A stretch of DNA of 64,000 nucleotides from NCBI GenBank assembly GCA_000004695.1, contig CM000153.2, positions 2,720,001 through 2,784,000 of the forward strand. The letters are read 5' to 3'. This DNA comes from Dictyostelium discoideum (lineage: Eukaryota). Positions 8,422-63,781 of this stretch are shown piece by piece (the first letter of the stretch is position 1; each line of letters begins with the position of its first letter). Made by a program: the position numbers and the translations under genes. The notes beneath the pieces were generated by a model. That model saw only the letters and a program-made list of their open reading frames with translations. It made no database searches and was not told the DNA's origin.

Positions 8422-11002
8422 CAAAAACATGAAATAAAAATAAAATAAAAGAAAATTAGAAAATAATAATTAATAATTATTCAAAATTAATATAATACAA
8501 ACATTTTCAGTTTTAAACTTTTCAACAATTTTTTTAAATTGTTGTTTTGAATGAGATTGTTGGAATTGAATATCAGAAGGTGGTAAAGTTAATAATAGTT
8601 CATCCATTTTTGTGTAGTATTCAATTAATGGTTTGAATTTGAGATCAATTAAAAAGTTTACATAGATTTCCAAATTTTCTTTAAAAATTGATTGAGAGGT
8701 ATCTTTATGTTGAGTTAGACAATTGATATTAAGTTCTTGTAATTTCAAATAAAAGAAATAATGATTCTCAAGTTTTGAAATGAATTTGTATTTTTTATCC
8801 TCTGGTAATTTCTCTACCAAACCATCCAACCAATTAAATAGCTCTAATATGATCTTCTTATAGGATGATTCAATTAAAAGAGTGCTTGAACCAGTGTCTG
8901 ATTCAGATTTATACTTTTGTAATTCTTTAACAAAGATATGAAAATTTCTAAAATGTGGTAAAACACCACATCTCTTTAAAGAGGTTTGAGTTGACTTAAT
9001 TGCATCAACTTGAACTTCTAAAAATTTGTTGAATAAAGTTTTTATACTTTTTTGTACCTCTGCCAAAATCTTTACAAAATATGAAGAATGATGAGAATCT
9101 TTACGTGAATGAGCGTCAATATATAACTCTGTTTCAAGTAACATTGTTAAAAGATAGAATGGATTAACTTGATCAGCTTTTTCAACCATATTTATTAATT
9201 CTGGTACAACTCCATTAAACATTGCACTTAATATTAAATCCAATGGTGCATCTGGTGATTCTTTAGGTGGTGGTGGTGGTGGTGGTGGTGGTGATGATTC
9301 TTCTGTTGATGATAATGAGCCATTGACTGCATTATTTGGAGATTTTGGACTATTTGAATCAATTGGTTTATCATTATCCAATGAAGGTGATGATGATGAA
9401 TCTGGATCTTTTTTTTTTTTATCTTTTTTATCTTTTTTATCTTTTTTATCTTTTTTATCTTTTTTACTTGATTTTTTATCTTTTCTATCCTTACCATCTT
9501 TATTACTACCACTACCACCACCACTACTATTTGAATGATGATTACGTTGACCAGCTAGTCTTGGTGGGTCTTGATATAAAAAGAAATCCATTACAAAATT
9601 TTGTTTTGTCATTATATAAATTTCTAAACAAGATAATGCATATTTAAATAATCTATTGATTTTACGTTTTTTAATACCATCTTTGCCACTACTACTACTA
9701 CTACTACTACTACTATTTTTAGATGGTGTACTTGTTGATGTATTGTTATTTAAACTATCAATTGATTTCTTTGATGAAGATGAAGAAGAAAAGAAATCAT
9801 TTTGATCCTTTGATTCTTTTTCTAATGACTGTTGAATAGTTGAAAAGAAAAGTTTAATATCACTTTCATAAATTCGACGAAATGCTTTAATATAAGAAAC
9901 AATCAATGGGATTAACTTTTCATGATCCATCTCTTTCAACCAATTAACCAATGGTTTAAATTTTCTTAAAAGGTCATAGTATTCCAAGTAATCTGGAAAC
10001 TTTTCTTCACCGGGTGTTTGAGATGTTGTTGTGATGACATGTTTACCAATTTCCTTATCAGTGGTTTTAAATATATTTTCAACCAATGCTGCGACCTTTC
10101 TTGCAAATGAGATTTTATAAGTTTCAAATACCTTTCTTTGATCTTTAACAGCCATCATATTATCCATACCACTCTTTAATTTGGTTGTTAATGCACGTTT
10201 TAAATCTTCAGCTGCTTCAATTGCCATCTTTAATCCCTTGGTATCGTTAAATTGTGGTGCTGTTAGTGTGGAAATTGTGTTGTCTGATAAAGTCATTAAC
10301 CCAATTAAATTATTCAATTCAGAGTATAATAACTTTTGATTTCTTGATACAATCTCCATCTTATTATTCTTTCCTTCAATATGTTCAATATATTTCTTCA
10401 TATCTTGTAATTGTTTATTATAATACTCAATCCATGCCGTCACACCTGTTAAATGTGTACCATCTTTATCACCTAATTGACTTATAACTTCATTAACTCC
10501 AACACCTGAATCTAAAACACCAACAATCATTTCCTTTAAAAAAAAAAAAAAAAAAAAAAAAAATTATTAATTATTAATTATTATAAAATAAAAATTTATT
10601 TTATTATATAATTTAACATACAGTTTCTAAAGTTGATAACGTTTTACCTAAACGTTCAGTTAAAATATCAACATCTTTTTCAAATGAGAGATAATTATTA
10701 ATAACATTTTCTAAATCTTCATCACCATCATTATTTCCCAAACTAGTTGCACTACTACTTAGAGTATTGTTTGATGGACCATTGCTTACATTATCATTCG
10801 ATTGTGATAGAAATGATGGGTACTCAAGTATTGGGATATTACTATGATGGTGATTTTCACTATCACTCTCTGAATGTGTGGTTTCTGATGGATCGTATTC
10901 ACTCTCACTATATTGACTATATCTATCACTAAATTGACCGCTATATCTATTATGTTGAATACCCACTCTACTAATACCACCTGAATATCCAAGATGATCC
11001 AT
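8155..11002 (-). CDS. Exocyst-complex-subunit-like protein (approx. 880 aa; possibly Sec3/EXOC1-like). 3-exon model join(11002..10622,10533..8503,8382..8155).
   Basis: Exon 1 (MDHLGY...LSFEKDVDILTERLGKTLSTLET) ends at a GTATGT donor. Exon 2 (E-MIVGVLDSGVGVNEV... with coiled-coil/helical-bundle segments and acidic/Ser/Lys-rich linkers) follows a TTTAAAG acceptor. After KFKTEN a weak GTTTGT donor, a roughly 120-nt intron containing a T-run of about 40 nt and an AAAAAG acceptor lead to a terminal exon IEKGLLKALGNVQKN...KNPNKH* that has no ATG of its own. The exocyst assignment rests on overall architecture and size, not on a checked alignment. Confidence 0.4.
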
Positions 11003-11378: not shown

Positions 11379-15364
<3,986 letters not shown>

Positions 15365-47625: not shown

Positions 47626-47634
47626 ATCCCATAA
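47626..47634 (+). promoter_or_regulatory. DUSE (Dictyostelium upstream sequence element) ATCCCATAA. A TATA-like TATAAATA lies at 47661..47668.
   Basis: Exact match to the [AT]CCCA[CT]AA consensus, about 60 nt upstream of the start of the GC-rich SRP RNA island. Confidence 0.7.
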
Positions 47635-47689: not shown

Positions 47690-47975
47690 TATGCAGGATT
47701 GGGTAGCGGCAACCTGTAATCAAGCGATGCATTCGAGGCGAGGACGAGAGCATTGTTAGGACCTTTGGGACAAGCGACGCATACAGTTGATCCACACTAA
47801 CGTTGGTGTCGACATACTATCAGTCTCTAAGGATTGAAAGTAAGTTGATAATGACCAAGTCAAGGTCCAGGCTGGCAACAGAGCAGACAGAGCGAGGCAC
47901 ATCGATGGGTAGCGAGGAAAGTCGACTTAAAGTCGTCCAAAGGAAATAACAATGTAAACTCGAACAAACCTTTTT
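47690..47975 (+). ncRNA. Signal recognition particle RNA (7SL/SRP RNA), approx. 280 nt
   Basis: An island of about 50% GC in AT-rich surroundings. Alu-domain CCUGUAAUC at 47713..47721. S-domain helix-8-like GGUCCAGGCUGGCAACAGAGCAGAC at 47864..47888 (GNRA tetraloop GCAA plus AGAGCAG; compare human AGGUCGGAAACGGAGCAGGUC). Upstream DUSE and TATA box. T14 terminator at 47971..47984. Exact 5'/3' ends not determined. Confidence 0.7.
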
Positions 47976-52763: not shown

Positions 52764-53233
52764 TTAATGGAAAAAAGAAAAGTTTGGTTGGAAATCCATA
52801 GTGTTGGTTGAATCTGGGAATGATTTTTGGGCATTTGGATTATTTGGATCGCTTGAGTGAAGTCCTGAGACTCTTCCTAGATTACCTAAATTACCAGCAT
52901 TATTTAAACTATTTGTAAGATTGTTGCCACCAGGTGCGGTTGTGGTTGCTGTTGTTGTATTACTATTGTTACTGGTGTTATTATTATTATTATTTTGATG
53001 ATTATTATTATTTGGATTATTATTATTATTTGAATTATTACCCATATTATTGTTGTTGGTATTTTGGTTATTGGCATTGTTATTATTGTTGTTGGTGTTA
53101 TTATTATTGTTATTAATATTATTATTATTATTATTGGTATTGTTGTTGGTATTATTGTTATTGTTGTTGGTATTATTGTTGGTGCTGTTGTTGTTGTTGT
53201 TGTTATTGTTGCTGCTGTTATTGTTATTGTTGC

Positions 53234-53265
<32 letters not shown>

Positions 53266-54260
53266 ATGTTGCTGTTATTATTATTATTATTATTATTATT
53301 GTTGCTGTTTAAAATACCATTACCAAGTGTATTATGAGTAGGAGAAGCAGATGGACTATCACCTTTTGCCTTTGGTGGTCTACCTCTCTTTTTAGGTGTA
53401 CCATCTGTGTTACTATCGGAAAATGATGTATTATTATAATCAGATTCATTCTCATCCTTTGGTTTCTTGGGTCTACCTCTCTTTTTATTGCTTCCTGGTT
53501 GTGGTACTGGTTTTGGTTGTGGATTACCTTCTTCATCCATCTTTGGTGGTCTACCTCTCTTTCTCTTTGGACCACTGGTATCTTTTGGTTCTGATGGTGG
53601 GTTTTTACGTGGACGACCTCTTGATCTCTTATCTGCTGAATTTGCTGATGATTGAGTTGGTGATGAATTAATACCCAAATTACTATTATTATTATTATTG
53701 TTGTTGTTACTATTATTATTATTATTATTAATATTGCTATTATTATTGTTATTGTTATTATTATTATTTATTGGTTGTGGTAATGATGATTGATTTTGAA
53801 TTGCTAATAAATATTAAATATTTAGTGTATATATATATATTAGAAAATATGAATATTAATATTTTAAATATATTATTTATTAATATTAGTAAAATTTATA
53901 ATTACCTAAACTTAAACCATTTAAATTGGTTCCATGCATTTGTGGTTGACCATTATTATTACCGCTATTGTTTCCATTATTACCACCTCCCATCATATTA
54001 TGACCCATTAATCCTAAACCATTTGGATTCATCAATGGTGGTGGAAGAGTTGTATGTAAATTATATTGTGGTTGTTGCATTTGTGGAGCTTGTTGATGCA
54101 AGTTTTGGATTGGTTGTTGCATTGTTTGCTGTGGTTGTTGTTGTTGTTGTTGTTGTTGTGGTTGTTGTTGTTGTTGTGGTTGTTGTTGTTGTTGTTGTTG
54201 CAATGACTGATTTTGAATTCCGTGAAGTTGTGAAAGATTTGGTAGAGTGGGTGTGCTCAT
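52764..54260 (-). CDS. AT-hook DNA-binding protein (approx. 465 aa), Q-rich N-terminus and N-rich centre. join(54260..53907,53803..52764).
   Basis: The ATG at 54260 (MSTPTLPNLSQLHGIQNQSLQQQQQQ...) leads to a GTAATT donor, a ~103-nt intron and a TATTAG acceptor. Exon 2 has five R/K-G-R-P AT-hook cores (KRSRGRPRKNP, KRKRGRPPK, KKRGRPKKPK, KKRGRPPKAK and others). Confidence 0.6.
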
Positions 54261-54962
54261 ATCTTTAAAAAATCGAGATTAAAAAAAAAAAAAAAAAAAG
54301 AAATTAGTATTTTTTTTTTTTTTTTTTTTAATATGATTTATTTGACTTTAATTATTTAATTTTTTTTTTATTTCAAATATTTAAAATGAAAAAAAAAAAA
54401 AAAAAATAAAATAAAAAATAAAAAAAAAAAAATAAAAATTTTATTTTTTTTTTTTTTTATTTTTTTTTTATTTTTTTGAAATTAAGATAATTTTAGAATG
54501 TTACGGTTTTTTGTGCGTCCGTTATATATTAAAAAATACGATGATCACCGCCTTTTAACGGCTATATGATTGTGTCATTGTTTATTTTTGTTATATTTTT
54601 TTTTTTTTTTTTTTTATGTTATTACTAAAACTATTATTATTATTTTTATTATTTTTATTATTTTTATTTTATATTTTTGTTTATTTTTCATTTTTTTTTT
54701 TGTTATGCCATGTCATTACTAAAATATTATTATTATTTTTTTTTTTTTTTTGTTTGTTTATTTTTTTTTTTTTTTGTTTGTTTGTTTATTTTTTTTTTTT
54801 TTTTTTTTTGGATTTTTTGAAAAAAAAAAAAAAAAAAAAAATTATTATTATTTATTTTTAATATTCTTTTTTTTTTTTTTTATATAAAATATATATATAA
54901 ATAAAGACGAAAAAAATTAAAAAAAAATTAAAAAAAAATTAAAAAAATAAACCACTAACCCT

Positions 54963-54997
<35 letters not shown>

Positions 54998-55512
54998 AGG
55001 GGAACTAAACTTTAGGAATAAGGATGGCTTAAATAAAAAAAAGTCAAATCCCTATACAAATACAACTTTGATTTATATTTATCGATGGATCTAAAAAAAT
55101 TATGATTTTGGGCCCTTTTTTTAAAATTTTTGGATTTTATGGGTATTAATTAATTTATTTTATTTTATTATTAATATTTTTATTTAAATAAAAAAAAAAA
55201 AAAAAAAATTTGAAAAAAATTAAAAAAAAAAAAATTAAAAAAAATTAAAAAAAAAATAATTTTAAAATTTCAAAAAAAAATAAAAAAATTTAAAAAAAAA
55301 AAAAAAAATTTCAAAAAAAAAAAAAATTTTTTACTAAATAAAAAAAAAAATAAAAAAAAATAAAAAAAAATAAAAAAAAAAATAAATATTAACAGCAAAA
55401 AAAGTTTCAGTTAAAAAATTCAAAAATTTTTTTTTTTTTTTACCGTGTGTTTTATTACTTTTTTTTTTTTGAACATTTATTAAAATATGAGTTTAGTTTT
55501 TTTTTTAAAAAA

Positions 55513-55551
<39 letters not shown>

Positions 55552-55625
55552 TAATTAATTAAATTGAGGATGATTAATAATTTTAATTCTATTTTTGAGA
55601 TTTTTAAATAATTTTTTTTTTTAGA

Positions 55626-55737
<112 letters not shown>

Positions 55738-55793
55738 TTTTTTTTATTTTTTTTATTATTTTTTTTTTATTATTTTTTTTTTGTCCATATATA

Positions 55794-55826
<33 letters not shown>

Positions 55827-55889
55827 TATTTTTTTGTTATTTAGTATCAGTTAGAGATTAATCTGAATTGAGTTGTAGTTGATTTTTTT

Positions 55890-56240
55890 TAAATTTCAAC
55901 TATCCGATGTATCTAACTTCATTGATTTTATACGCAGCCAAGTTTTCCCAACCTTTGTCATACTGACTCGACCTTTACATTTTCCGACCTTTCGGCAAGT
56001 TGATGAATTGGTTTCTTTGTCGTTTTTTAGTATGAGCTTAGACTATTTCTGTTACCTGACCATTACATTGTTTGTAATTTCCCCCCTAGAGATTTTCGCG
56101 TACTCAGACCTTCCCATATTATTCTCTCTTTATGATTTTAAAAATTTGTGAGAGATTCCTTTTTTTAATGATTGCCATTTGTTGAATATTACATTGGTTT
56201 CAAACCAATACCAAATAATCAAAATAAAATACCCCATTGA
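55890..56240 (-). ncRNA. Candidate RNase P RNA or RNase MRP RNA gene (minus strand); ends approximate
   Basis: A non-AT-rich island. The minus strand contains GGGAAGGUCUGAG (+ 56103..56115), a 13/13 match to the human RNase P RNA CR-I/P4 segment. It is preceded by a P3-like hairpin UCUCUC-N21-GAGAGA. It is followed by a GARAR-like GAAAA and a GNRA-capped hairpin GCC-GAAA-GGU (+ 55984..55996). A CR-V-like ACAGAAAUAGUCUAAGCUCAUA lies at + 56031..56052. An exact DUSE lies about 55-60 nt upstream of the presumed start. Confidence 0.45.
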
Positions 56241-56292
56241 CATTTGATTTTGTGATGACTTTTGTGGAAATTTTTCAAAAACGTAAAAAATT

Positions 56293-56300
56293 TTATGGGA
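56293..56300 (-). promoter_or_regulatory. DUSE TCCCATAA on the minus strand (the + strand reads TTATGGGA), upstream of the RNase P/MRP-like island
   Basis: Exact [AT]CCCA[CT]AA consensus. An A/T-rich TATA-like sequence lies 25-35 nt downstream on the minus strand. Confidence 0.55.
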
Positions 56301-56769
56301 ACAATCAATTTTTTTTTTTTTTTTTTACTAAAATAAAAAAAAATAAAAAAAATAAAAAAAATATTTTTTAAAAAAGTGTGGAGATGATTATGGTGAAGTT
56401 ATTTAACAGTTTTTATATTGGTTGGTGCAATGATAAGTGATTAAAAAGAATTTGGTAAAAAAGTTATTAATGAATCTTTTTTTTTCAAAATAAAAGAATA
56501 AAAAAAAAAAAAAAAAGAAATTAAATTTTTTTTGAATTGGAAAAAAAAGAAATTAAATAATTATTGAAATAATAAAAATAATAATAATAATAATAAAATT
56601 AAATAATAAAATTAATGTATATTTTTTTTTCCCTATTTAATCTTTGAAATATCAAATAAACAAACAAGTTTTTGTATATAAAATATCTATTTATCTATTG
56701 TTTTTATTATTTTCTTTTATTACCAAATCAATTTTATTTTTTTAATTTTTTTATTATTTTTTTATTTTA

Positions 56770-58139
56770 CAAGATATAATTTTGAATCTATAAATAAATT
56801 AATTGTTTTAAAATTATTTTATAAATGTAAATTTGAAAAAAAAGAATTAAAAAGAGTTTTTGAAAAATGCCCAATTGATGAATTAAAATTTAAAATTAAA
56901 GATTTAAAAAATTCATGTATTTCAATTATTTATTTAAATTTTAATGAATAAAATAATATTATATTTAAAAATGTAAATGAAATTAATGAATTATATAAAT
57001 CATTATTTTTATTAAAATCAGATAGAAATCAAATAATATTAGATTTTATTTATGATCAATATTCAAATAATAATAAAGATAATGAAAAATTTAATTTCAT
57101 TTTAAAATTATTGAAAATGTATTTTGAAAATTGTAATTCAAATCATGATGAATTCTATTCAATGTTATTAAATAATAGGCATTATTAATATAAAAGTAAT
57201 GAACCTAGAAGAAATCAATTATTTAAGAATTCAATTAAGTTTGGAAATTTTCAATTATTTAAAGTAATGTTTAAATTAATAAATTGTTTATTTGATTTTT
57301 ATGAACCCGTTTCAAATGATGGATTTAAACTAATGTTATTTCAATTTGAAAATAATTTAAATTATAAAATCGAATTTATTAAACAAGTTTGCCAATTGGT
57401 TAAAAATAATTCAAATTATTTAAATTTTATATTTAATCAAGTTTTATTGTATGATGATTTAGAGTTAATAGAATTAGGATATAACCAATTAGATAAGCCA
57501 ATGTTAAAAATTGAATTTATAAATCAAGATAATTATAGAGAAAGTACTAATAGTAATAAAAAAGAATGTGAAGCTGAATTTTATTTTATTAGGTCAGAAG
57601 GAGTGTTGGAATTTATTTTTAAAAATTATTTAAAAAATTGTAATAAAATATTACCAATTACCAATTTCATTTATAATGGCAGATTAGATTTAGTTGAAAA
57701 GTATAAATCATTATTATTATCATCATCATCATCACAAGAAATATCATATATTGAACCATCATTTAAATTAGATCCACCAATTTGTTATTCTCATAGACTT
57801 TATTCAATTACTATTGCAATGGAAGCAATGATTGGTTTTATAAATTCACCATCACTTTCAAATGGTTGTGGTGATAGTGATGATGGCGTAATTTTTAAAA
57901 ATGAACATTTCTTTGGTTTAAATAATTTAAAATTAATTTCTGATTTTATTTATTTAATTAATCATAAATTTACAAATCAAAAAGGACCATTCTATTTTAG
58001 TTTTTATGGTCACCCAAGACTAAAATTTTATATTAAAATTTTAATTGCAAGATGGATATATTTTAATAAACCAAATCATTTTGAAAGATTTGGATTTAAT
58101 ATTTTAGATTTATTAATTAAAAAAAATAAAATTTTATAA
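56770..58139 (+). pseudogene. Paralogue copy A of the downstream 1093-aa gene. The 5' part (56770..57266) is degenerate with in-frame stops. The 3' part is an intact ORF (57267..58139, 290 aa) that may be expressed as a truncated paralogue.
   Basis: FIFNQVLLYDDLELIELGYNQLDKPMLKIEFINQDN...FIRSEGVLEFIFKNYLKNCNKILPITNFIYNGRLDLVEKYKSLLL matches residues about 880-1000 of ORF 58336..61617. The upstream QIILDFIYDQYSNNNKDNEKFNFILKLLKMYFENC matches its KIFDFVYYQYNSDNKNKLKSILKLLGLFYGHSF region but is interrupted by TAA/TAG codons. Confidence 0.4.
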
Positions 58140-58335
58140 ATAAAATAAATAAAATAAAATAGAATAAATAAAAAAAAAAATAAAAAAAAATTAGGAAAAA
58201 AAAATCTATTTTAGCTCAAATACTTAGAAAAACATTTTATTTTTTTAATTTATATTTTTTTTTTTTTTTTTTTTTTTTAATTTTAGGTATTTAATTTTTT
58301 TTTTTTTTTTTTTTGTTTCTTTATTTCTGTTAAAA

Positions 58336-58690
58336 ATGGGTATTTCTAAGAGAGAAAAAGAATTATTAAATGTTACAGAAAAATTAAAAAAAGAAAATCA
58401 AGAATTAAAATCAAAACTTTCAACAAGAGAAAAATTAAATAAAAAAAACAATAATAATAAAGAGATTATCATAGAAGAAGAGGTTGAAAATGAAAATGAA
58501 AACGAAAATGGTAGTCAAAATATGGATTGTGGTTTAGAAAAAGAAAAAGATATAGATACAATAATGAAAGAATTAGAAACTAAAAAATATAAAACAATAG
58601 CAAAAATCGCAAAAACAAAGTATGGTGTTCAACAATTGGGTGGTAAAAAATTAGATATTTTAGAAAGAATTAGAGAATCTATTAAATTGA

Positions 58691-58743
<53 letters not shown>

Positions 58744-59650
58744 GAGAAGAATCAACAACAACAACAACAACAACAAAAACAACAACTAATACCAATGAGT
58801 GGTGGTGAAAGATTATTTTGGAAAATTTTTAGAAATAAATATTTAAATAGACAAATTATAAATAAATTATGTACAGGAAAACATTCATTAAGATATGATG
58901 AAGTTTTTAATGTTAGTCGCATGATTGAATGTAATGAAATTGAATTGTTAAAAGACAAAGTTTATAGAAATCAATATTTAACAGGTTTTGAAAAATCATT
59001 ATCAGATTTATTTTCAGCAATTAAAGATGATAAAAAATTCTATATAAGCTTTTTTAAATTTTATCCAAAGATATCATTATTCAGTATTGATTATACTGTT
59101 GGAAATATTTTAAAATCTGATTGTATTGGTGCATTAAAATCATTAGTTGAAGAAAATAATTATAAACCAACTACCGATAATTTTATTCAATCAATTAAAG
59201 ATGGTAGTTATAAAACATTTAAATATATGATGAATCTTTTTGAAAATTCAAATAATAATGAAAATAATAATAATAATAATAAAAATAATAGTAATAATAA
59301 CAATAAAAATAGTATAGAGAAATTTAAATTACCATTCACAGAAAATGAATTTTGGAAATCAATATTTGGATACTGTTTTATAAAACGTGCTAAATTCATT
59401 AACTTTATGATTAACAGATACCATATAAAACCAGCAGCTGTGACACCACTTAGATTTAAAAAAATTTCAAAGTTTTGTCCAATCCAAGAATCATTACTTA
59501 TTAAAGATTTAATAAATATATGTGAATCTATGATTCATTTAAAAGTAAAACCAAAAGGTTTTTATCAAAATATTATTTTTAAAAAATTAAAAAAGAAAGG
59601 TGATAGTAAAAGTAAAAGTAAAAATGATAGTAGTAGTGATAGTGATAGCG

Positions 59651-59699
<49 letters not shown>

Positions 59700-59710
59700 A
59701 AGCGAAAGCG

Positions 59711-59771
<61 letters not shown>

Positions 59772-61617
59772 AAATGAAAAAGAAAAAAAAGAAAAAAAAG
59801 AAAAAAAAGATAATGATAGTAGCAGTGGTAATAGTGATAGTGAAAGTGATAGTAGTGAAAGCGAAAGAGAAAAAGAATTTAAAGAAACAATTGAATCAAT
59901 AACTAAAATTGAAAGAAATCAAAAGATATTTGATTTTGTTTATTATCAATATAATAGTGATAATAAAAATAAATTAAAATCAATTTTAAAATTATTAGGA
60001 TTGTTTTATGGCCATAGTTTTTTTGAAGGAAATGAATTTTATTCATTGTTAGCAGGTGAAAAAGTAAATATATCACGTAAAACAAAACATTCAGATTTAT
60101 TATTGCATTCATTTAGATTTGGTGATATAGAATTGTTTAAAGAAGTTTCAAGATCAACTATTTGTTCAACTATTCGAAATGTAATTTTTGAAGATAAATC
60201 ATTTGTTGGAAATATACCAATTCTCTTTCAATTTCAAAATAAAAAAGAAAATCAAATTCAATTCATTAAAGACATTTGCAAATATCTTAATATTGTAACA
60301 CTCCAAAAGATATATGGAGATAATCATATTTACATTTTCTTTGGGCAAGTTTTATTATATGATGATTTAGAATTGATAGAATTAGCATATAATCAATTAA
60401 ATAAACCAATGTTAAAAATTGAACATATGAATGAAATAGGAATCACTGAAATTTCAACCAATTTTGGTGGTAATCCAAGTTTTCATACTGAATTTCATTT
60501 TATTAGATCAGAAAAAGTATTGGAATTTGTTTTTAATAATTGTTTAAAAAATAATAGTAAAGTATTGCCAATTACAGCATTTATTTATAATTGTAGATTG
60601 GATTTAGTTGAAAAGTATAAATCATTATTATTATCAGTACCAGCAGCACCACCATCGCCATTGCTTAAAAGAGATATAGTTTTCAAAGTACCACTTCCAC
60701 CAATATTAAATACTTGCCAATTCAATTCAATGGGTTTAGTATTGAAAACATTTATAGATTTCCTTCAATCACCTCTATCAAAAGGTTGTGGTGATAGTAA
60801 AGGTGTTGTTTACAAAAGTTCTCATATAGTTAGCTATAAAGGCGTCAATTCAGTATTGGATTTTACCTATCTTTACTCTATAACTCTAGATAGAAATTCT
60901 GGCAATGGTATACCCTTTCTACCAGGCAGAGGCAGTCTAAATTATTATTTTGTAGTTGCAGTTCAAAGATGGTTATTCTACAACAGAAATGTTTTACCAA
61001 ATAGTTATAATTTCACACTATTCTCTGAAAAATATTGTTATTTTGGTATTGGTTATTCTCATGCTTCAAAAAAACCAAAAGAAATTTTCAATACTATTGA
61101 AGATACTGAATGTAAAGGTTTCATTAATGATTTTATTAAATTAGGTTTACCAAATTTTCATTCGGCTACAACTGAAACAACAACACCAACAACACCAACA
61201 ACAACACCAACAACAACAACACCAACAAAAAAAACAACCATAACTGGTAACAATCCAGATGTAATTTTAAATAATGGCGATAAAATTTGTTTTGCAAATT
61301 ATCTTAGAGGTTTATTGGAAAAAGAAGCAACAAAGGGTCATATTAGATTATTTAAAGCTTTGGTTGATAATGGTTATAAATCAATATTTTCAAAAAGATC
61401 AAATGATTCAAAAAGTATTTTCGATCAAATTCAATTACACGAAATACTCTATCGTGCTTTAAGAAATAACCATTTACAATTATCTCTTTATCTTTTAGAG
61501 GATTGTAATATTTCAATCACTAATACCCAATTTTATTCAAATGTTTCTAAAAGATTTGAATATTCTGCAACTTTTTATGCTTTAAAAGATTTATTTAAAA
61601 ATAATGAAATAATTTAA
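58336..61617 (+). CDS. Lineage-specific hypothetical protein (1093 aa) with an N-terminal coiled coil, poly-T/poly-Q tracts and a ~35x Ser-Glu dipeptide repeat; founder of a local 3-copy tandem family
   Basis: Uninterrupted ORF from the ATG. The (AGTGAA)n hexanucleotide repeat at 59640..59790 encodes (SE)n. The C-terminal 600 aa are conserved in the flanking copies A and C. No known domain recognised. Confidence 0.55.
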
Positions 61618-61925: not shown

Positions 61926-62460
61926 GTGAATTCTTTTATATTAAATCGATCAAAGTATTGGAGTTTATTTACTACAATTTCAAGATGGTCATTCTTTAAT
62001 AAACAACTTGACCAATTTCCAGATAATTATCATTGCCTTGGATTACTACCAACAAGAACATTAAAATTTCTAAATTTAAATTTAAATTTCAACACTATAA
62101 ATGGTTATGATGATTTCATTAATGATGTAATTAAAATTAAAATCAAAATAGACGAAAACAAAAATATAACCATTCAAAATACAAATACCGAGTTCATTAA
62201 ATGGTTTCATAATATTTTATTAGCTAAAATATATTTAGGAGATATTAGAATATTTAAATCAATTGTCGATAATGGATATAAATAATTATTCTCAAATGTA
62301 TCCACAAATAATTACCATCCGAATGGTATTTTCAATCAATTTCAAGTTCGTGAAATTTTACCGGATGCCTTAATGTATGACCACTTAGAGCTATCTTCAT
62401 ACCTTTTAAATTTTTTTGAAATATCAATTCCAACAGTGGGGTTGTCTTTGATTTTTTATT
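61926..62460 (+). pseudogene. Paralogue copy C: a decayed fragment corresponding to the C-terminal ~170 aa of the 58336..61617 gene
   Basis: ...[77 protein letters not shown] parallels ...ANYLRGLLEKEATKGHIRLFKALVDNGYKSIFSKRSNDSKSIFDQIQLHEILYRALRNNHLQLSLYLLEDCNISITNT but is broken by a stop codon. The N-terminal 2/3 of the gene is absent. Confidence 0.5.
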
Positions 62461-62557: not shown

Positions 62558-62621
62558 ATTTTTATGAAATACTAAATTGTAAAATAACAACAAAAAGGTA
62601 ATATATATACACCTAATAATA

Positions 62622-63781
<1,160 letters not shown>

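Follow-up and report, generated by a model that had tools for sequence, protein, structure and literature searches.

In a window of 64,000 nucleotides of Dictyostelium discoideum DNA (the whole stretch that was analyzed), a minus-strand island with a G+C content of 26-41% extends over approximately positions 55850..56300 between flanks of no more than ~15%, and the question that it raises is which RNA is encoded there and where that RNA begins and ends. The initial annotation noticed the mixed composition and the CG-containing strings of the island (the reverse complements of ccgaaaggtcgg and ggtctgagtacgcgaaaa) and interpreted the locus as a DUSE-driven gene for the RNA of either RNase P or RNase MRP; that reading is borne out here and resolves to RNase P. 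Taken in the direction of the minus strand, the segment 56300..55797 begins with the DUSE, from which a spacer of 57 nt leads to a G run; ~410 nt of mixed composition and 28 T residues follow. Coordinates of RNA features below refer to this strand.

The identity of the RNA is indicated primarily by the covariance models. When the entire window was compared with the Rfam 15 models, two matches exceeded their gathering scores, namely those to the SRP RNA (Dictyostelium; 47691..47968, plus strand, 320 bits) and to the nuclear RNase P RNA. The latter match, to RF00009 (RNaseP_nuc), spans 56136..55846 on the minus strand and scores 62.6 bits, the gathering score being 28, with E values of 1.5e-15 when the whole window is searched and 2.2e-17 when a 901-nt region is searched; the covariance-model search that had been proposed as a check thus returned a full-length match, in which model positions 1-301 are covered by 291 nt of sequence. 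RNaseP_nuc is the best family of its clan and the one kept after competition within the RNase P/MRP clan, and a permissive Rfam rescan of 55600..56500 yielded nothing further of note beyond the RNase P RNA. Judging from these matches and from the conserved core described next, the locus is almost certainly the gene for the RNA subunit of the nuclear RNase P of D. discoideum, transcribed from the minus strand.

In the RF00009 alignment, all five conserved regions, CR-I to CR-V, are present in the canonical order and with the canonical spacing, the core reading CR-I, P7, P8, P9, P10/11, CR-II, P12, CR-III, CR-IV, eP19 and CR-V. CR-I (GGGAAGGUCUGAG, 56115..56103) is an exact match to the RF00009 string GGGAAGGUCUGAG with which it aligns and is invariant in the three species compared (D. 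discoideum, D. citrinum and D. dimigraforme). As originally noticed, the exact motif is found on the minus strand, and it is unique: GGGAAGGTCTGAG occurs a single time in the window, at 56115..56103, where ~0.08 occurrences would be expected even with two mismatches. The last 8 nt of CR-I (56110..56103) represent the 5′ strand of P4, the 3′ strand of which (55867..55860) lies within CR-V (ACAACUCAAUUCAGAUUA, 55876..55859, aligned to the consensus AACCCAAUUCAGACUA). Paired as P4, CR-I and CR-V form 8 pairs when G-U pairs are included (5 in the Rfam annotation), all invariant in the three species, and the distance of ~226 nt between the two regions is normal. Given that P4 of eukaryal RNase P is a nested long-range helix, a pseudoknot constraint is unnecessary in folding this RNA.

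Between the two strands of P4, the specificity domain was found to be complete, with P7-P10/11 and a CR-II/CR-III module that flanks P12. In the Rfam alignment, P7 pairs 56100..56097 with 55936..55933, and the hairpins P8 and P9 occupy 56092..56080 and 56078..56062, respectively; the pairs of these three helices are all standard and invariant in the three species. P10/11 (56060..56054 with 55943..55937), likewise made up of standard pairs, shows one U-to-C change, with the pair kept. CR-II (AACAGAAAU, 56053..56045) and CR-III (GGUUGGGAAAAC, 55953..55942) align to the consensus strings guGaGuuACCAGAAAu and cUUGGAAaagaCuCacGGCC, respectively, and the CR-IV region (AGUUAGAUAC, 55918..55909) aligns to AGUgCAAUG; each of the three is invariant across the species compared. 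The P12 expansion arm (56042..55952) is the site of all five compensatory pairs discussed below, and its tip is the CC-GAAA-GG hairpin (55995..55988), rightly recognized at the outset as a GNRA-tetraloop hairpin. The eP19 hairpin (UAGUUG...CAACUA, 55902..55876, Rfam alignment) has a stem that is kept across the three species and a loop of 15, 4 and ~21 nt.

This alignment revises several details of the anatomy that was first proposed. The motif ACAGAA (56052..56047), which together with GCUCAUA (56037..56031) had been taken for a CR-V-like element, is CR-II, and GCUCAUA is the base of P12; the GAAAA at 56097..56093, taken for a GARAR-like element, corresponds to the P7/P8 junction. The apparent spacing of ~65 nt between CR-I and CR-V is nonexistent, the true CR-V being located 226 nt after CR-I. 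Since it was CR-II that had been mistaken for CR-V, there is no longer reason to think of an MRP-type RNA or of a reduced one: both the order and the spacing of the core are normal. The interval considered initially, 55890..56300, also cuts off the last ~70 nt of the gene, with CR-V and the 3′ strands of P4 and P1 lying below 55890.

The choice between the two related RNAs can be made on the same alignment. [quoted passage not shown] However, the best-scoring family of the clan is RNaseP_nuc, a P-type specificity domain is present in which the P-specific CR-II (AACAGAAAU) and CR-III (GUUGGGAAAAC) modules align, and CR-I (GGGAAGGUCUGAG) and CR-V (CAAUUCAGA) equal the P-type consensus letter for letter, whereas MRP RNAs carry a GAAAGUCCCC-type CR-I and are not known to have CR-II or CR-III. 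An RNase MRP RNA gene at this position is accordingly exceedingly improbable. A distinct MRP RNA of D. discoideum, with a P3c helix, is on record (PMC1796607).

Orthologs of the RNase P RNA gene were identified with RNaseP_nuc in D. citrinum (62.5 bits) and D. dimigraforme (49.1 bits), which belong with D. discoideum to the Group-4 species. The setting is the same as in the window, upstream of and on the opposite strand to a RabGAP-TBC gene (62607..63766, downstream in the window) that has orthologs across Dictyostelia. The alignment of the three species runs from the DUSE to the 3′ end of the gene, and the sequence outside both limits is unalignable; within these limits, little or nothing varies in CR-I to CR-V and P7-P10/11. 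For the hand-annotated structure of 97 pairs, 96.2% of the cells in the three species are standard pairs, compared with 34-43% when the partners are displaced by 1-3 columns. Compensatory changes on both sides are seen in five pairs, all in P12, a number reached in no more than 7 of 500 shuffles, and the pairs of the tentative P3, of P4 and of P7-P9 show no variation. With only three close relatives compared and covariation confined to P12, the covariation evidence is supportive but thin. Variable loops over kept stems, as in eP19 and in the UCUCUC/GAGAGA hairpin described below, are the usual signature of real hairpins.

The same comparison bears on whether the locus could be a non-functional duplicate, with the working copy of the RNase P RNA gene elsewhere in the genome. 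The search for copies covered only the window and the ~20-kb loci, which leaves some room for such a copy; nevertheless, the five conserved regions, P4, P7-P10/11 and the DUSE with its spacing are invariant in the three species at the syntenic position, the gene is conserved in a setting where the flanking intergenic DNA is largely unalignable, and compensatory changes preserve P12. A pseudogene is therefore very improbable.

More distant orthologs were sought through synteny. Within 10 kb of the RabGAP-TBC loci, no RNase P RNA was detected in D. purpureum, Polysphondylium violaceum, Tieghemostelium lacteum, Cavenderia fasciculata, Acytostelium subglobosum or Heterostelium album; the D. purpureum locus contains a U3 snoRNA in place of the RNase P RNA. 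The loci of paralogs of the 1093-aa protein encoded next to the gene, in D. firmibasis and in a second D. discoideum assembly, have different neighborhoods and contain no RNase P RNA, and a protein search with the exon of the proteasome-lid subunit PSD13, on the other side of the synteny block, returned one 129-aa match that was of no use. A metagenome scan for GGGAAGGTCTGAGTAC retrieved 89 stretches, none with a CR-V-like string downstream, and the 13 of these that were scanned gave no RNase P match; these metagenomic matches are due to chance.

The island has also been interpreted on the opposite strand. A 90-aa ORF (55879..56151, plus strand) lies antisense to the RNA gene, and the gene calls of the second D. 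discoideum assembly (GCA_054883475.1, CM142510.1) include a 421-aa model that runs from an ATG at ~56032 to 58139 on the plus strand, with the ATG-proximal part of this ORF as its first exon. If the unusual composition reflected such a coding exon, the stop-free stretches of 85 and 121 aa on the antisense strand of the other two species would be its counterparts. These stretches, however, are in different frames and cover different spans, the peptides are unrelated except over the invariant RNA core, single-nucleotide indels separate the three species across the antisense region, and the ORF has no family match in Pfam. The probability of a plus-strand coding exon is thus negligible and the ORF is spurious, in agreement with the initial annotation. 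By implication, the protein-coding first exon that is called antisense to the RNase P RNA gene in this recent assembly should be removed.

The upstream boundary of the gene is marked by an exact match to the DUSE (TCCCATAA, 56300..56293, minus strand), a promoter element found upstream of Dictyostelium ncRNA genes. It is separated by 57 nt from the start of the terminal helix at the GGGG (56235..56232), within the 55-60 nt given at first. The motif [AT]CCCA[AT]AA typically precedes the start of the RNA by ~60 nt (PMC3188802, PMC7919456) and, according to the passage of PMC7919456 that cites Hinas et al. (2006), is used in D. discoideum by genes of Pol II as well as of Pol III. By itself the octamer carries no significance, as the window has 4 matches where 3.5 are expected; its meaning comes from position and conservation. 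All three species, D. discoideum, D. citrinum and D. dimigraforme, have GTTCCCATAAAA unchanged, 57-58 nt before GGGUAUU. The second DUSE that had been reported in front of the SRP RNA is likewise in place, 56 nt upstream of that gene. A DUSE-like sequence, ACCCATAA, at 55137..55144 on the minus strand was rejected for lack of conservation in D. citrinum and D. dimigraforme.

On the downstream side, a run of 28 T (55824..55797) directly follows the terminal helix in D. discoideum and fits a possible Pol III terminator, which would make Pol III a candidate polymerase for this gene. Pol III is given here as no more than a candidate because U4-U5 runs occur within the RNase P RNA itself and because the T run is absent from the equivalent 3′ place in D. 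citrinum and D. dimigraforme, where TTATTATAGTT-type sequence is found instead.

The two ends of the RNA probably lie outside the Rfam match. The predicted gene, in its entirety, occupies 56235..55821 and yields an RNA of ~410 nt, with RNA nt 1 at 56234 and nt 410 at 55825; its extension beyond the 291 nt of the Rfam match is based on a terminal helix, on the GC island and on sequence conservation through 56234..56174. In the folding of 56236..55827, with which the RNAalifold consensus of the three species agrees, the 5′ strand of this helix (P1 and a probable P2 stack; GGUAUUUUAUUUUGAUUAUUUGGUAUUGGUU..., RNA nt 2-35, 56233..56200) pairs with a 3′ strand (...AACUGAUACUAAAUAACAAAAAAAUACC, RNA nt 380-410, 55855..55825) over ~30 bp interrupted by two small bulges. 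The duplex energies are -26.6 kcal/mol in D. discoideum, -31.4 kcal/mol in D. citrinum and -29.0 kcal/mol in D. dimigraforme, and the 23 inner pairs are 94% paired across the three species. The changes in the helix are one-sided only (G-U to G-C and U-A to U-G), and neither D. citrinum nor D. dimigraforme retains the pair A19-U396.

The Rfam match starts 157 nt after the DUSE, compared with 57-58 nt for the terminal helix. The P1/P2 helix placed by Rfam (AUCA...UGAU) was rejected, given that it is not conserved in D. citrinum, and for this reason the RNA is placed at approximately 56234..55825, P1 and P2 being stacked into a single long helix. From the spacing and the helix, we infer that the RNA starts at the G run 56235..56232, ~58-60 nt downstream of the DUSE, and that the 3′ end of the transcript falls at 55825 or shortly beyond it, which in D. 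discoideum is at the T run. The ends of the ~410-nt RNA would then pair in a ~30-bp helix, P1 on P2. As a practical consequence, the Rfam match under-reports the gene by ~120 nt, and the ends are best predicted from the DUSE spacing combined with the terminal helix; the locus illustrates cleanly how the DUSE plus ~58 nt predicts where an ncRNA starts.

The 77 nt between the terminal helix and CR-I consist of two hairpins and an A-rich linker of variable length. The first, an extra hairpin present in the RNAalifold consensus of the three species, is CCAAUGU(AAUAUUCA)ACAAAUGG (nt 38-60, 56197..56175). It is nearly invariant, the single substitution among the three species falling in the loop; all 6 of its pairs are invariant and thus provide no covariation evidence. 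The second is the UCUCUC/GAGAGA hairpin (nt 80-112, 56155..56123), correctly described from the outset as lying just 5′ of CR-I: it ends 8 nt before that region, and its stem is kept in the three species over loops of 21, 13 and 19 nt.

In RNase P RNAs, the P3 arm, located between P2 and CR-I, is the binding site of Pop6/7 or Rpp20/25, and in the human H1 RNA it ends about as far before CR-I as does the UCUCUC/GAGAGA hairpin. Both 5′ hairpins are candidates for P3. The position of the UCUCUC/GAGAGA hairpin matches the 3′ edge of P3, and it is tentatively assigned to that arm, for which the P3-like label of the initial annotation was reasonable by position; this hairpin contains no internal loop. 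The clear helix/internal loop/helix form of the eukaryal P3 is seen in neither of the two, and neither shows covariation among the three close relatives. With the model P3 deleted in the RF00009 alignment and the Rfam-placed P1/P2 not conserved, the 5′ 100 nt rest on the model developed in this analysis. Two alternative pairings for the 5′ region of the RNA were considered and rejected for lack of conservation, one of GAGAGAAUAAU with the 3′ AUUAAUCUCU, in which the 3′ UCUCU becomes UCUUAG in the other species, and one of UAAUAUUC with GAAUAAUA, which is broken by a loop change in D. dimigraforme.

Compared with the human H1 and yeast RPR1 RNAs, which belong to the same family (RF00009), the Dictyostelium RNA has a CR-I equal to the family consensus, and identical to that of H1, along with CR-V (CAAUUCAGA), CR-II, CR-III and CR-IV; P4, P7, P8, P9, P10/11, P12 and eP19 follow in the same order, and the gene likewise has a putative upstream promoter, the DUSE, and no recognizable internal one. 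The Dictyostelium RNA differs in being very A+U-rich, in its predicted length of ~410 nt compared with 340 nt for H1, in a predicted terminal helix of ~30 bp in contrast to the ~7 pairs annotated in the RF00009 model, and in the ~77 nt with two hairpins in place of a clear helix-loop-helix P3. The DUSE arrangement is the same as in other DUSE-driven ncRNA genes, namely those for snRNAs, Class I RNAs and the SRP RNA, and also in the U3 gene of D. purpureum. In contrast to Class I RNA genes, the AAATGTG “TGTG box” is not conserved, the respective sequences being AAATGTC in D. discoideum and ATATGTG in D. citrinum, with none in D. dimigraforme.

By analogy with other members of the family, the RNA would assemble with the Rpp and Pop proteins encoded by D. 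discoideum, P4 and the flanking conserved nucleotides (CR-I, CR-IV and CR-V) would make up the catalytic core, where metal is bound, the T/D-loop elbow of pre-tRNA would be read by the CR-II/CR-III module in the specificity domain, and the holoenzyme would remove the 5′ leaders of pre-tRNAs. RNase P RNA is universal, and the enzyme of D. discoideum and its RNA have been studied for decades. The sequence of the nuclear RNase P RNA of D. discoideum was reportedly described by Marquez et al. (2005, RNA 11:739) and by Piccinelli et al. (2005, NAR 33:4485); the organism and the family being the same, the gene analyzed here is most probably the published one. It is an ordinary and already known gene, and its recovery from this window is a rediscovery, of little importance beyond annotation, the by-products of which are a revised anatomy, revised boundaries and one annotation error brought to light. 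RNase P of D. discoideum has been characterized as a ribonucleoprotein, with Rpp20, Rpp21, Rpp25, Rpp29, Rpp30, Rpp40, Pop1 and Pop5 as candidate protein subunits (PMC3001073); titles cited in PMC3001073, PMC3141246, PMC8509007 and PMC4919917 show that the enzyme was purified and that work was done on its RNA subunit, and among the titles cited in PMC3141246 is the study of the RNA subunit by Stamatopoulou et al. (2010).

It may be, although we consider it rather unlikely, that the D. discoideum clade has an RNase P RNA ~120 nt longer than the Rfam core, through the ~30-bp P1/P2 stack as well as the almost invariant hairpin of nt 38-60 and the A-rich linker, both inserted between the stack and the hairpin in the P3 position, and, as a separate matter, that 3′-end formation differs between close species (T run in D. 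discoideum, TTATTATAGTT-type sequence in the other two). If true and absent from the published structure, such an expansion would be lineage-specific, with a partner or role of its own, and the differing 3′ ends, if true, would hint at a gene other than a simple Pol III unit.

The second D. discoideum assembly (GCA_054883475.1, CM142510.1) differs from the window solely in homopolymer lengths, and the RNase P RNA gene is identical in the two except for the 3′ run, which comprises 24 T compared with 28 T here. The DDB_G0285xxx numbering of the AX4 protein named below suggests that the window is part of chromosome 4. An exact cluster look-up of two proteins of the window found neither in the collection. 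The neighboring 1093-aa ORF (58336..61617) is encoded exactly on CM142510.1, and its homolog in AX4 is DDB_G0285087.

The gene for the SRP RNA lies on the plus strand of the window at 47691..47968 (Rfam Dictyostelium_SRP, 320 bits), and an exact match to the DUSE, the upstream promoter element of Dictyostelium ncRNA genes (TCCCATAA, 47627..47634, plus strand), ends 56 nt ahead of the RNA start, which bears out the initial annotation in placing a DUSE before this RNA as well. The arrangement of DUSE and RNA is the same as that in the nuclear RNase P RNA gene. By itself, the DUSE octamer is uninformative because the window contains 4 exact matches against the 3.5 expected. Two further exact strings are located within coding-looking sequence on the minus strand, at 15011-15018 and at 63569-63576, the latter inside the RabGAP-TBC gene and antisense to it; no RNA-like sequence was seen after either of them.

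The RabGAP-TBC gene (62607..63766) provides a synteny anchor for the RNase P RNA, which is found upstream of this gene in D. discoideum, D. citrinum and D. dimigraforme. In D. purpureum, the position upstream of the RabGAP-TBC gene is occupied by a U3 snoRNA (GL871141.1 locus, L006 9396-9666, plus strand; 86 bits) that is preceded, at a distance of 54 nt, by an exact DUSE, so that the same intergenic slot holds another DUSE-driven ncRNA gene in this species.

Relative to the arrangement in D. citrinum and D. dimigraforme, the RNase P RNA and the RabGAP-TBC gene of D. discoideum are parted by inserted genes of a fast-evolving protein family without Pfam domains (57267-61617 and 61926-62285, plus strand). 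The members in the window, proteins of 290 and 1093 aa and a fragment of 119 aa, have common motifs such as LPITNFIYNGRLDLVEKYKSLLLS, and paralogues with 40-47% identity are present at other D. discoideum loci and in D. firmibasis. The gene calls on contig CM142510.1 of the second D. discoideum assembly (GCA_054883475.1) include a plus-strand model of 421 aa (L001 7699-9804, equivalent to window ~56032-58139), the first exon of which begins at an ATG within the ORF 55879..56151, antisense to the RNase P RNA. This model is probably a spurious exon joined to the real 290-aa ORF (57267..58139).

Past the 3′ end of the RNase P RNA, the minus strand carries a run of 28 T (55797-55824), which consists of 24 T in the second D. 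discoideum assembly and is absent in D. citrinum (L004 ~8561-8575) and D. dimigraforme (L005 ~8641-8655), where a common TTATTATAGTT-type sequence takes its place. An intergenic block of ~75 nt (55059-55144, minus strand) shows 83-89% identity to these two species; the adjoining DUSE-like ACCCATAA (55137..55144, minus strand) is not kept in either of them. The block may serve to regulate the AT-hook/Q-N-rich gene that lies at 52764..54284 (minus strand).
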